Below the pieces are notes generated by a model. The model did not search any database and was not told the origin of the DNA. It saw only the letters and a program-made list of their open reading frames with translations. Shown piece by piece: positions 3,784 through 8,573 of a DNA stretch of 16,019 bases; position 1 is the stretch's first letter, and each line of letters begins with the position of its first letter. Position numbers and translations under genes: made by a program. Source of the DNA: Gemmatimonadota bacterium (lineage in GTDB: Bacteria > Gemmatimonadota > Gemmatimonadetes > Longimicrobiales > Gaopeijiaceae); contig JBDHHQ010000117.1 of NCBI GenBank assembly GCA_039589315.1, forward strand, positions 1 through 16,019, written 5' to 3'.

Positions 3784-5319
3784 TTACGCGGCTTCCACAG
3801 ACCATTGGACCCGCTCGGCGAGGAAGCGCGCGAAGGGCTCAATGTCGCTTCCCACGCTTGCGACCTCCAACGCAGAGAGGTAGGCGTCACGGTCCTCGAT
3901 ACGAATCACCGTCCAGGGATAGCCTCCTGAGGCCAGCATCGCGTTCATCAGGAATCGGGCGATGCGGCCGTTCCCATCAGGGTAGGGATGGATGTAGCCG
4001 ACCATCCAGTGCCCGATTACTGCACGGACCGACGGCTCCTGCTCCTCTTCGAGCAGGTTGAAGAGAACGGGCATGGCGTCCAGTAGGGACTCCGCGCGCG
4101 GCGGCACGTGCCGGGACCCACGGAGGTAGACCGGATCGCTGCGATACCCGGCAAGGGCCGCGGCCGGGATCACCCCTGCACCCACGAACGGCTGAAACAG
4201 CTCCCGGTACCACTCCCGGTGGCTCGTACGCACGAGCGCTCCAGGGTTCGCTCCCGTGAGGATTCGGCGGACGTCGGTCTTGACGACCTGGAAAGCCTGC
4301 CAGTATCCGCGAGCCGCAAGAGCGTCACGGTCCTCCCGATCTTCTGGGCGCGATTCGGGATCCCAATTACCCGCTCGCACTCGCTCGATCAACTCGGGAG
4401 TGACCGAATACCCCTCGATGGAAAGGGAGTGGTAGGCATCGCTTCGATAGATATCTTCGACGAACGCCAGGTATGCGCGTTCGTCTTCGGGGAGTCCGGG
4501 CGCCGCTGGGAATTCCTGGATGACGGTGTTACGCATAGCTTGCCATAGGCCGCGTACCCGTCCGGCGAGTGGGGCCACTCGTGGGTGGACTTCCCCGAAT
4601 GACTGTTCAGGCAAGAAGGGATCGGATTCCCGGATGTCGTAGTCGGCGGCCTTCATCGCTGCGAGGATCTCGTCGGCGACGTCGGCCCGGCCGATCCGTC
4701 GAAGGGCGCCGGCGAGTCGGCCGGCGACAGCGGAGCGACCGCCCTCGAGGAGAGGACGCAGCAGCTCGGAGGCATCCTTGATGCTCACCAACACGAGCTG
4801 AGCCTCCACCGGGTAGCGCGCGAAGAACCCATCGGGCACCTTCATGAGCGCTGCGGCCGGTGAGTACAGGCGCAGTCCGCGTAGCTCCGTAAGATCGGCC
4901 CTCGCCGGCATGGCTGGCTGCTTCAGGTCGTAGAGACTGGTGCCGAACAACAACTCGATCGTGTTGTTCGTGCCGTATGGGCTGTATATGACCACCTGAT
5001 CGGGGATCGTCGTATCTTCCGCGTGGATGAGGATCGACAGTTCAGGTGACAGATGCCACTCCTTCCCGAATCGACTCTCGCAGTACCTGGCGCAGAATTC
5101 CCAGAGGGAGGCGTACCAAGGAGTCGTGTCGCCCGGACCGGTCTCGGGACCCGAGGAGATCAGCCAGCCCTTGATGACTTGCTGAAGAAGGCTGTGCTTG
5201 AGAAGGCGCTCGCGGTGGACACGCGTGAAGTCACTGGATCTGAAGACCCGTCGGCCGCCTCTTTGGAGGCCTTGGAGCACCTCGAGGGACGAGGCGAGCT
5301 TCTCGCTTGGAGTAGCCAT
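3784..5319 (-). CDS. Fic-family protein (class II, intramolecular inhibitory helix) with long AbiEi-like N-terminal region
   Basis: Fic motif HPYPDGNGRIAR (3955-3990); inhibitory (S/T)xxxE(G/N) motif SLSIEG (4411-4428) N-terminal to the core; 511 aa. Confidence 0.9.
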   Translation of the reverse strand: MATPSEKLASSLEVLQGLQRGGRRVFRSSDFTRVHRERLLKHSLLQQVIKGWLISSGPETGPGDTTPWYASLWEFCARYCESRFGKEWHLSPELSILIHAEDTTIPDQVVIYSPYGTNNTIELLFGTSLYDLKQPAMPARADLTELRGLRLYSPAAALMKVPDGFFARYPVEAQLVLVSIKDASELLRPLLEGGRSAVAGRLAGALRRIGRADVADEILAAMKAADYDIRESDPFLPEQSFGEVHPRVAPLAGRVRGLWQAMRNTVIQEFPAAPGLPEDERAYLAFVEDIYRSDAYHSLSIEGYSVTPELIERVRAGNWDPESRPEDREDRDALAARGYWQAFQVVKTDVRRILTGANPGALVRTSHREWYRELFQPFVGAGVIPAAALAGYRSDPVYLRGSRHVPPRAESLLDAMPVLFNLLEEEQEPSVRAVIGHWMVGYIHPYPDGNGRIARFLMNAMLASGGYPWTVIRIEDRDAYLSALEVASVGSDIEPFARFLAERVQWSVEAA

Positions 5320-5798: not shown

Positions 5799-5883
5799 GC
5801 CGGGGTGGTGAAATCGGTAAACACAGGGGACTTAAAATCCCCCGGGCGTAACGCCCTTGCGGGTTCGAGTCCCGCCCCCGGCA
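5799..5883 (+). tRNA. tRNA-Leu, anticodon TAA
   Basis: Acceptor stem GCCGGGG/CCCCGGC + discriminator A; D-loop with GG; anticodon stem GGGGA/TCCCC with loop CTTAAAA (TAA at 5833-5835); long variable arm GGGCG-TAA-CGCCC; T arm GCGGG-TTCGAGT-CCCGC. CCA not encoded. Confidence 0.97.
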
Positions 5884-5937: not shown

Positions 5938-7344
5938 CTAGACGGCCGCGTCCCTTCGCTGCTCGATGACGCCGAGGGCGGCCGCGACGTTCCTTTCCCG
6001 GATGCCCAGCTTCTCATAGATGCGTAGCTGCCGCTCCACGGAACCGAGAGCCTGGTCACCAGCCCGAGCCAGCGCGTTCCGATAGTACTTGGCGACGACG
6101 CCGGGCTTGCTGGACGTTAGTGACTTCAGGTCGGCCTGGCTGATGAGGAGCCACGGGTCCTCTTTGCCTTGGCGCTCGTTTCTCGCCAGTGCGGCCTCGA
6201 TGGACGCCTCCACCATCGCCTCGAGCTTCGCCCGACGCCGCTCTTCCTTTGCAAGGAGCTGGGCGCCGTCCTCGTCCTCGTCGAGCTCCGCCTCCCAGAT
6301 GTCCGGGTTGGCCTGGGCCAGCTCCACTCGAACGGTCACGAGGCCCAACGCGTTCAGCCCGGAGTAGTAGTGGTTGAGATCCTGCTGGAACCCGTTTTCG
6401 TATGCGTCGATCGATCTCAGCAGGAAGGGTGAGGTCAGAGCGGCCTCACGTCGTGATTCGGCGTCCGCGGCGCTCTGCCAGTCTGCCAGCCAGCGGGTCT
6501 TCGCGTTGCTGGCCTCCAGCGATCGTAGCTCCGCGATCTCGTCTTGTGTCGCGTCCTGTCGCTCGTGAATGCGCAGCAGCGCTTGGTCCGACCTGGTGAG
6601 GTCGTTCATCTTCGCGTAGATGGTCCCGAGCCGGCTGTTGGCCTCGAAGTCCGTGGGCTCCAGCTTGCGGACGGCTTCCCATGCGTCGGCGGCCTGCAGC
6701 CAAACCTGCAGCCCGAACAGCGCCTCAGCCGTGAGACGCAGACCTTTGGCCTCCCACTTGGGCTTCTCGTCACGCACGCGGTGCGCCATGCCGGCCAACT
6801 CGTCGGTGTCTCGTTCCCGCTCCGCCGCCCAGACCGCCTCCCGGAAGCTCCGCGGCACTGCCATGAGACGCACGGGGTCCTGGGATTCGAGACCGGGGAG
6901 CATCTTGAAGACGGGGCTGTCGGGGCCCTCGTTCTCCATGGTCGCCTCGAGCACCTTGACGAGCTCGTCGACGTGATTCTCGGGCGCGTTGACGTCGTAC
7001 CAGCAATAGCGATCGGTCAGCAGGTCGAAAGGCACGTCATCGGCTCCGTTGTTGATCAGCACCGTGCGCTTTTCCCGAACGGCGTGGCGGATGCCCAGCT
7101 CGTAGAAGACGTTCGCGTTGTGGATGGAGATGTCGGCGATCACGACGTCAGCCGTGCAGATGAGCTCGAACATGTCCTCCCTGATGTTGCCCGCCTCGAT
7201 GATCTCGACCGTGGTGCCGCCGCCCAGGCCCGCAGCGTCGATGGCGGGCCCGATGAGCTTGGCGTGGATGTCCTCGAAGTCGACCTCGTTACCCTTGGAG
7301 TCCTTCTTCTTGTTGAACGGCCGGATCGTGAATGCGCGGGCCAT
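5938..7344 (-). CDS. Nucleoside 2-deoxyribosyltransferase-like (DRHyd-type) domain fused to TPR-S/DUF4071 helical repeats
   Basis: N-terminal AF.I.PF...VDFE.I...I.PA, ADVVIADISIHNANVFYELGIRHA and PFD motifs; C-terminal YYSGLNA, DPW and S..RQL motifs typical of DUF4071/TPR-S; GGGAGA RBS. Confidence 0.8.
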   Translation of the reverse strand: MARAFTIRPFNKKKDSKGNEVDFEDIHAKLIGPAIDAAGLGGGTTVEIIEAGNIREDMFELICTADVVIADISIHNANVFYELGIRHAVREKRTVLINNGADDVPFDLLTDRYCWYDVNAPENHVDELVKVLEATMENEGPDSPVFKMLPGLESQDPVRLMAVPRSFREAVWAAERERDTDELAGMAHRVRDEKPKWEAKGLRLTAEALFGLQVWLQAADAWEAVRKLEPTDFEANSRLGTIYAKMNDLTRSDQALLRIHERQDATQDEIAELRSLEASNAKTRWLADWQSAADAESRREAALTSPFLLRSIDAYENGFQQDLNHYYSGLNALGLVTVRVELAQANPDIWEAELDEDEDGAQLLAKEERRRAKLEAMVEASIEAALARNERQGKEDPWLLISQADLKSLTSSKPGVVAKYYRNALARAGDQALGSVERQLRIYEKLGIRERNVAAALGVIEQRRDAAV

Positions 7345-7412
7345 GTGATCTCCCTAATTAAGTTGCTGGCTCCGCTGCCAGGCGAAGTGAGCGGGCCCGG
7401 AGCGATGACTCC

Positions 7413-8573
7413 TCACCGCAGGTCGAAGCGCTTCGGGAAGTGTTTCGCTTCGATCTTGCTCATGCCGTCGATCTCTGCCAACTCGTTGAGCAGGGGCATG
7501 TTGTCGGGCTCGTCCATCTCGGTGAGAGACTCGAGGGTTTCCTTGTCGATCCCGGGCTTGAGGCCGTCTACGGACTCCCGGGTCAGAGAGAGGTCGTAGC
7601 GCTGGTAGGTGAAGCTCGCACCGCCGCCGACGTGGTCGTCGCGCAAGTTCCCGATCTCGCGATCGATGACGCGATGCGTGTCCCCCTCGGACAGCCATTG
7701 GACGAGCGTCTCCACGAGGGCACCGGAGTCGTCCATGAGCGAAAGGAGCGACTGCATCGCCCCTTTGGCCGTGATCCATGTGGGCTCCTTGCCTGGGTGT
7801 CCGCGGCCGGTCCCGATGGACACGACCAGGAGCTTGTCGGGACCAGTGTCCCATCCGACATGGGACCCCTTCAATGTCGCGTACATGAACGCTTGGAGGG
7901 TGGGGTTGTTGAAAGGGCTCACGCCGCCGTCGACGAACTCGCCCTTCACGGTCTTGAAGCCCTTCTGCTGCTTGATGGTGATCTTCTCGGGGTCGAAGAA
8001 GCTGGGGGCCGCCGTGGAGGCGCGCACGACCTTCCACAGCGGGTAGTCCTTGTTGGAGATCCAGTCGTCGCCTCTGCCGGCCTGGTAGTACGCTCCCCTG
8101 GGATTGTTGCCCAACGGCCAGGGGCTCCCCGTATCCATTCGCTTGGTCATGACCAGCAGGCCGGTCTTGAGCTCCTGACCACCGAGCGTCGTGTCCTTCC
8201 CGAAAACGGCGCGCAGGTGCTCCGTGAGTCGTTCGTGGCTGTACCGGGCGCGAAGGATGCCCTTCCTCCAACGACTCCTGCGGAAGACCTCCCGACCGAG
8301 CCGCAGGTATATCTCGGTGAGCTCGTCGACCGACATCCCCAGCGCGCTCGCAGCGGCGATGATGGATCCCGTGGAGGTACCGGCGATGAGATCGAAGTAG
8401 TGACACAGCCGGAAGTCGTCTCCACCGCCATGACGGCGCCGGAGCAGATCCTCGATCCGTTTGAGGTATCCCAGGGTGACGATTCCACGGAGCCCTCCAC
8501 CGTCGAGGGCGAGAATCCGTTTGGGCCCTGGTGTCTGGAAGTGCTGATTCCGCGTGAGCTTCTTGTAGGGCAT
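7413..8573 (-). CDS. Patatin-like phospholipase (CapV-like/patatin group)
   Basis: RILALDGGGLRG oxyanion loop, nucleophile GTSTG, ASTAAP and catalytic DGG. Start set at ATG 8573 (MPYKK) with GGAGA RBS, rather than 8768. Confidence 0.9.
   Translation of the reverse strand: MPYKKLTRNQHFQTPGPKRILALDGGGLRGIVTLGYLKRIEDLLRRRHGGGDDFRLCHYFDLIAGTSTGSIIAAASALGMSVDELTEIYLRLGREVFRRSRWRKGILRARYSHERLTEHLRAVFGKDTTLGGQELKTGLLVMTKRMDTGSPWPLGNNPRGAYYQAGRGDDWISNKDYPLWKVVRASTAAPSFFDPEKITIKQQKGFKTVKGEFVDGGVSPFNNPTLQAFMYATLKGSHVGWDTGPDKLLVVSIGTGRGHPGKEPTWITAKGAMQSLLSLMDDSGALVETLVQWLSEGDTHRVIDREIGNLRDDHVGGGASFTYQRYDLSLTRESVDGLKPGIDKETLESLTEMDEPDNMPLLNELAEIDGMSKIEAKHFPKRFDLR

Follow-up and report, generated by a model that had tools for sequence, protein, structure and literature searches.

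How could a patatin-like phospholipase and a predicted N-glycosidase joined to a TPR region act together in immunity when no familiar signal maker is encoded beside them? This question is raised by two adjacent genes in a 16,019-nucleotide stretch of DNA from Gemmatimonadota bacterium (GenBank assembly GCA_039589315.1, contig JBDHHQ010000117.1), which we call the window and which is an entire contig (C117) of a 6.67-Mb genome that is 95% complete. A first-pass annotation, made from the letters alone, had described two co-oriented genes, 68 bp apart and each with its own ribosome-binding site. The open reading frames, the spacing, and the GGAG and AGGGAG motifs just 5′ of the patatin and head-TPR starts, respectively, bear out this description. 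The features of the locus are the following.

7413..8573, minus strand: patatin-like phospholipase, 386 amino acids, ATG at 8573; PF01734 E 1.5e-28
5938..7344, minus strand: head-TPR gene, whole open reading frame, 468 amino acids; second gene, downstream of the patatin gene
6880..7344, minus strand: predicted NDT/MilB-like (DRHyd) N-glycosidase head, residues 1-155, from fold and invariant residues
5938..6879, minus strand: all-helical TPR region with TPR-S (residues 216-333; PF20308)
7345..7412, minus strand: 68-bp spacer with the AGGGAG ribosome-binding-like site ahead of the second gene
5799..5883, plus strand: tRNA-Leu(TAA), in convergent orientation to the pair, listed for context

Together the two genes make up a widespread conserved cassette. 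In 50 of 80 GTDB loci (the best 80 from 592 that were confirmed when the first 600 of roughly 2000 matching stretches were examined), the head-TPR gene has a patatin of a single clade no more than 1.5 kb away; among loci flanked by 2.5 kb or more on each side the figure is 44 of 64, and the conserved pairing that the annotation had anticipated is thus found. The patatin gene is upstream on the same strand in 42 of the 50 pairs, downstream on the same strand in 5 and convergent in 3; the spacing is at most 200 bp in 44, and two of the patatins are broken (one fragment, one split). Paired loci span Acidobacteriota, Pseudomonadota, Bacteroidota, Myxococcota and others. Across 48 pairs the pairwise identities of the two proteins correlate (r 0.64; best of 999 permutations 0.28), a correlated divergence that can be explained by shared ancestry alone. 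Both genes are under purifying selection: relative to a congener (G001), the head-TPR gene differs by 111 synonymous-only and 42 amino-acid codon changes, and the patatin gene by 95 and 36. A homolog search with the head-TPR protein yielded 2033 proteins among 8000 scored, and a 50%-representative library contains 269 at E<=1e-30. Among 60 relatives of the host, one congener only has a full-length head-TPR gene, and a search of 400 genomes of the phylum returned none at E<=1e-20, a patchy spread typical of mobile immune genes. In our view the pair is real and conserved and its role is probably immune, and it varies on a class that has been predicted before and tested in part.

The annotation had also assigned NDT-like and TPR-S domains to the second protein, and our analysis agrees. 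TPR-S is recognized at residues 216-333 (PF20308, E 7.3e-10). Pfam gives no match on the head domain, and sequence comparison yields weak matches (DNPH1, E 0.11; PF05014 in 4 of 41, best E 0.012). When the head was folded alone (residues 1-155; AlphaFold predicted local distance difference test score 89.8), Foldseek matched the model to NDT (E 8.8e-5), to the cytidine monophosphate (CMP) glycosidase MilB (template-modeling score 0.64) and to DNPH1, with TIR folds ranking lower; the whole 468-residue model retrieved TPR proteins only. The model thus places the head in the NDT/DRHyd superfamily, with a predicted flavodoxin-like five-strand fold. The noted likeness to ASK1-type proteins is visible in relatives, in which PF13281 (MAP3K_TRAF_bd, DUF4071) exceeds its cut-off (for example, E 2.2e-11 and 8.3e-8); the window protein has no PF13281 match at E<=0.1.

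Seven head residues, R8, N76, N78, Y81, E82, R86 and H87, are invariant in 48 of 48 aligned sequences. The catalytic glutamate read by the annotation in FYELG is therefore kept; it is E82, which aligns to the YELG of DNPH1. In a set of 268 proteins, 244 have YE at the catalytic position and 2 have YQ, and the motif was unmatched in 22. The spacing of N78 and E82 is also that of N82 and E86 in BcTpr, a MilB-like head-TPR protein (10.1101/2023.05.26.542521), a comparison of motif spacing only and not a sequence alignment.

The lipase has intact patatin motifs, as had been claimed: PF01734 matches with 100.8 bits against a cut-off of 27.7, and DGGGLRG, GTSTG (S67) and DGG (D215) are all present. 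Its best solved-structure match is CapV (E 3.4e-16), the stand-alone patatin of the cyclic-oligonucleotide-based antiphage signaling system (CBASS), which is described with the same catalytic dyad and as a sensor-less enzyme activated by cyclic GMP-AMP (cGAMP; PMC12480259). Membership in CBASS was rejected: the patatin scores 115.2 bits with the CapV NCBIfam equivalog against a cut-off of 200, the cGAMP contacts are not conserved, and the operon has no cGAS/DncV-like nucleotidyltransferase (CD-NTase). Membership in DS-2 was rejected as well, the patatin scoring below cut-off. Three cGAMP contacts of AbCapV, F147, K149 and D159, align near W152-P158 and N174 of the window patatin; W152, P158 and N174 do not vary in any of 50 members of the patatin clade. 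This invariant but different stretch at three CapV contact positions may hint at a ligand site and is suggestive only.

A key feature that the annotation missed is what the window protein lacks. Most relatives are about 660 amino acids long and carry an extra domain of about 200 residues, beginning LLFTGH...GGASGGD, where the window protein ends. From this motif we take the domain to be a putative YpsA-like SLOG; in the Pfam library, PF10686 weakly matches a homologous domain (E 4.9e-4, below cut-off). The tail is found in 114 of 120 homologs among the matches listed, in every one of the 80 GTDB loci (in three of them spread across two frames), and, among 130 representatives of full length, in 114; contig ends may cut some of the other 16. 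The window protein, lacking this usual C-terminal domain, thus falls outside the three-domain DRHyd-TPR-S-SLOG family, and a SLOG-domain profile found no match in the host genome, window protein included.

The loss of SLOG is real and old in the clade of the window protein. Eight of the 10 members of its cluster have the 468-residue form, and it joins proteins of 466 and 472 amino acids (75% and 62% identity) in a clade with 100% support, which rules out an assembly artefact. In a FastTree phylogeny that excluded L027 and L056, whose genes are split, only weak clustering was seen for patatin presence and for SLOG loss (26 of 500 shuffles scored as low). Within a 17-kb stretch, G725 has a second pair without SLOG or TIR, its head-TPR gene being more distantly related, and ThsB-like TIR genes of this genome lie away from the pair. 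A metagenome scan with the single protein returned 5 loci, none from the SLOG-less clade. In some relatives the SLOG domain shifts onto the lipase: on a plasmid of Rhodococcus sp. JS3073 (NZ_CP113952.1, which has no annotation; L094:2990-6101), a SLOG-less head-TPR-S gene overlaps a SLOG-patatin fusion. This fusion parallels ThsA (SIR2-SLOG) of type I Thoeris, whose SLOG domain is reported to sense an ADP-ribose (ADPR)-type signal and gate the effector (PMC9503650); ThsA pairs its SLOG with a sirtuin effector, whereas the window has a lipase and no SLOG. The Rhodococcus pair stands downstream of a long WD40-repeat gene, and its host is cultured.

What the head might make is suggested by BcTpr. 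This protein is reported to deplete nicotinamide adenine dinucleotide (NAD+) and to make an isomer of cyclic ADP-ribose (cADPR), both of which are impaired in the N82A and E86A mutants (10.1101/2023.05.26.542521). The MilB-like glycosidase, TPR core and N-x-N-x3-E motif of BcTpr are common to the window protein, and a signal-making head is plausible because a relative with this motif is reported to make a cADPR isomer. The preprint tests the TIR-paired form and no Patatin-Tpr, and the window has no TIR. It also tallies operons after Burroughs and Aravind 2020, with Patatin-Tpr at 4 of 78 and YpsA-Tpr at 5, and the window, with a patatin gene beside a glycosidase-TPR core, fits the Patatin-Tpr class in this relayed listing.

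A similar architecture is described for ThsI of type VIII Thoeris (10.64898/2025.12.03.692087), in which a CMP-hydrolase head of the MilB/NDT fold precedes TPRs. In that system, the TIR protein ThsB is reported to make cADPR, which ThsI answers. The window differs in having no ThsB TIR in operon or genome, a longer TPR region and a patatin partner; the word "patatin" is absent from the main text of the type VIII paper. By hhalign, the window family matches, with probability 99.5 and at 27-31% identity, the TPR member of a similarly built plasmid operon (TRAFs-binding protein, two TIRs, DUF4231), used as a stand-in for ThsI. The pairing is thus already listed in print, and the head-TPR protein is distantly related to proteins of type VIII Thoeris-like operons and to BcTpr; the annotation's view that the system was unnamed in kind does not hold. 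Our literature search, with subscription papers (both Burroughs/Aravind surveys included) out of reach, found no test of a patatin with a head-TPR partner.

From these likenesses we tentatively favor a relay, plausible though short of probable, in which NAD+ cleavage by the head would yield a cADPR-type activator of the lipase. Infection, or a little cADPR, would trigger the head-TPR protein, which would cleave NAD+ at E82 to an ADPR-type product. This product would activate the patatin through SLOG where that domain is present and directly where it is absent, as in the window, the SLOG-less patatin reading the signal at a site equivalent to the cGAMP site of CapV. The activated patatin would then hydrolyze membrane phospholipids, and membrane damage together with NAD+ loss would abort the infection. 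NAD+ cleavage and cADPR-isomer production by the window head are modeled on BcTpr, and nucleotide-triggered killing by the patatin is modeled on CapV; the trigger, the direction of signaling and the direct reading of the signal by a SLOG-less lipase are steps that we infer. We count in favor of the relay the patatin pairing and the correlated divergence, the TIR-free loci, the BcTpr mutants with the matching invariant residues of the head, the SLATT neighbors, the SLOG domain on the lipase, the invariant patatin residues near the CapV contacts, the G725 pair and the purifying selection. A more specific version would be a minimal defense free of TIR, cyclase and SLOG, in which the messenger produced by the NDT-fold enzyme, of ADPR type or derived from another nucleoside, would be read by the patatin directly in a CapV-equivalent pocket; this we regard as doubtful.

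The surroundings of the cassette were scored with TIR, SLATT, CHAT and STAND profiles that were home-made, partly from the same 80 loci. None of the four matches in the window, and PF18144 (SMODS CD-NTase) has no match in the host genome (G000), the congener or G725, in line with the annotated absence of a TIR or CD-NTase partner. The association with defense islands that had been proposed stands in part: immune genes occur in 34 of 80 loci (TIR 25, SLATT 7, CHAT 6, STAND 8), but 21 of 37 well-flanked pairs, like the window, have no match to five immune profiles. Independently of the home-made profiles, Pfam TIR_2 exceeds its cut-off at 13 loci among 186 near-neighbor sequences, a subset of 267 picked open reading frames plus a few extra segments. 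Of the 80 loci, 7 have a SLATT gene beside the head-TPR gene (4 of these 7 are patatin-free), and the SLATT protein ThsH is reported to be a cADPR-responsive effector of type VII Thoeris (10.64898/2025.12.03.692087).

Several observations weigh against the relay. BcTpr without BcTir is reported to give no protection (10.1101/2023.05.26.542521), and ThsI is described as a cADPR-activated effector (10.64898/2025.12.03.692087), so that the annotation's signal-making NDT-like domain gains plausibility from BcTpr and meets the opposite direction in ThsI. The invariant Arg8 of the head corresponds to Met11 in BcTpr, and the window protein is only 27-31% identical to TIR-associated relatives; the substrate of the head may therefore differ from that of BcTpr. 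TIR genes are enriched near the relatives, at 25 of 80 loci against about 1 expected from the density in the host genome (5 per 6.67 Mb), and 30 of 80 head-TPR loci have no patatin. On the lipase side, the CapV pocket residues F147, K149, D159 and E207 are not kept; E207 aligns to Y231, a position occupied in the clade mostly by M, and the conserved pocket residues may be structural rather than ligand-binding. In a reverse count over 702 genomes from two phyla, strong patatin matches (E<=7e-78) numbered 19, four weak ones (E about 1e-32) having been set aside. After exclusion of 3 genomes already in the query alignment, a head-TPR or TPR-S gene lay within 1.5 kb of 4 of 16 independent matches; 4 had a TIR, CHAT, caspase or SLOG-SLATT neighbor and 8 had none. 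Among plasmid patatin matches, 2 of 6 had a head-TPR or TPR-S partner.

Long patatin homologs include TIR-patatin, ParA/nSTAND1-patatin, patatin-SLATT and patatin-TPR-S-SLOG fusions, the last in 3 of 23 (P0286, P0287, P0291) and without a glycosidase head. Because of these varied fusions and the scattered partners of its clade, the lipase is best seen as a general immune-type effector, often but not exclusively used with a head-TPR partner.

In an alternative account, glycosidase and lipase are parallel effectors of an orphan, type VIII Thoeris-like system: a TIR protein encoded elsewhere would supply cADPR in trans and so activate both, the glycosidase draining a nucleotide pool. The reported activation of ThsI by cADPR, the reported binding of cADPR by BcTpr (Kd, the dissociation constant, 1.9 uM; 10.1101/2023.05.26.542521), the TIR-patatin fusions and the ability of a patatin to take the same slot ahead of TPR-S-SLOG all fit this account. 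TIR genes lie near 17 of 50 patatin loci, but the fetched DNA of the other 33 has none; likewise, the host genome has 5 TIR_2 matches on other contigs, but these are in long open frames (347-935 amino acids), one beside a STAND ATPase, and no ThsB_TIR (PF08937) match was found in this genome. We consider parallel effectors unlikely. Distinctly less probable is direct contact, in which the TPR protein would control the lipase in a guard- or antitoxin-like manner and the glycosidase would be a second output or a nucleotide sensor. The tight operon spacing, the correlated divergence, the patatin-TPR-S fusions and the repeated tolerance of SLOG loss would suit such contact, but convergent pairs occur, partners are exchanged (SLATT, CHAT-lipase, TIR), and the window patatin groups with patatins whose partners scatter on the partner tree, which a diffusible link fits better.

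The sign of the signal could also be reversed. In a decoy circuit with a logic like that described for Panoptes, a constantly produced glycosidase signal would keep the lipase off, and a phage that sponges or degrades cADPR-type signals would release it. BcTpr alone is reported to keep the cADPR isomer high at every time point (10.1101/2023.05.26.542521), and most pairs have no separate phage-sensing TIR; yet 12 of 16 clade patatins have no head-TPR partner, an arrangement not expected if the lipase were constitutively toxic, and we hold this circuit to be highly improbable. Finally, the pair might be a truncated remnant whose SLOG-less form no longer signals, or a non-immune pair for lipid and nucleotide housekeeping. 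The near-universal SLOG tail of relatives, the absence of a SLOG match elsewhere in the host genome, the housekeeping genes in the flanks and a break in synteny with the congener exactly at the stop codon speak for such an origin. It is nevertheless very unlikely, given the prevalence of the 468-residue form in its cluster, the fully supported clade with the 466- and 472-residue proteins, purifying selection on both genes and a patchy spread typical of mobile immune genes.

If the version of the relay in which the patatin reads the messenger directly is correct, the window patatin would be the first cADPR-type-activated phospholipase, and ThsI-like proteins would be generators or amplifiers as well as effectors. 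On this point the two preprints disagree in what they report, a glycosidase-TPR protein making a cADPR-type signal in one (BcTpr) and only answering it in the other (ThsI). Because the window pair has neither TIR nor SLOG, it is the smallest natural construct that could separate the generator and effector models. Protection by the pair on its own, dependent on E82 as well as S67, would mark the head as a generator and the patatin as an enzyme driven by an NAD-derived messenger.

Other arrangements accompany the family. In L011:6408-10007, L013:6417-10004 and L037:1948-6300, ParA-nSTAND1 is fused to head-TPR-SLOG or TPR-S-patatin, and L011 and L013 also have a TIR gene upstream; these loci resemble the TIR-ParA systems described in 10.64898/2026.10.19.760177. 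A Rhizobium plasmid island (L093:2027-9649, CP050566.1) encodes a lone SLOG, head-TPR, DUF4231, a muramidase, a patatin, DUF4071 and an unnamed 345-residue protein, with a TIR gene on the opposite strand. A gene of 1700-1850 amino acids with DUF7379, alpha-beta-hydrolase, CHAT and TPR-S domains adjoins the head-TPR-SLOG gene in L008, L025, L029, L049 and L060, and as another lipase-like partner replaces the patatin in 4 of these 5 loci. Five Acidobacteriota loci (L018, L023, L037, L041, L073) have a second, divergent TPR-S-patatin fusion slightly upstream of the cassette, and a small PGDYG-family gene lies just upstream of the head-TPR-SLOG gene in L057, L060, L061 and L062 (Pfam E 2.7e-7 and 5.7e-6 in L061 and L062). 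Viral contigs supplied 24 loci (L133-L156) with the glycosidase head only, in frames mostly of about 240-365 amino acids, and no patatin, SLOG or TIR match was found near them.

In the window, the pair is preceded on the minus strand by an operon with CO-dehydrogenase/xanthine-oxidase-like genes, a MoxR-type ATPase, a CoxE-like VWA gene and a dipeptidase, the last separated from the patatin gene by 296 bp. The G+C content at third codon positions is 0.84 and 0.86 for the two genes and similar in their neighbors. Pair and upstream operon are syntenic with the congener over 10 kb at 85%; synteny ends at the head-TPR stop codon, the downstream gene of the congener differs from that of the window, and a search of the congener found no counterpart to the window's left part. 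Although only 54 bp separate the end of the head-TPR gene from the 3′ end of the tRNA, a tRNA-targeted insertion is not supported, as the contig has no repeat of the tRNA end and the congener differs downstream. Across the tRNA from the pair lies a Fic-domain gene (3784-5319, minus strand, 511 amino acids; PF02661 E 4.8e-12; PADLOC SoFic 1.3e-20) that was not found in the congener; its third-position G+C content is lower (0.75), and a sigma-70-like site is present at 5484-5455 in the lower-GC spacer beside it. At 225-1427 on the minus strand, a 400-residue open reading frame with two CxxCH-like motifs and no Pfam match adjoins a beta-propeller gene and is possibly a c-type cytochrome.

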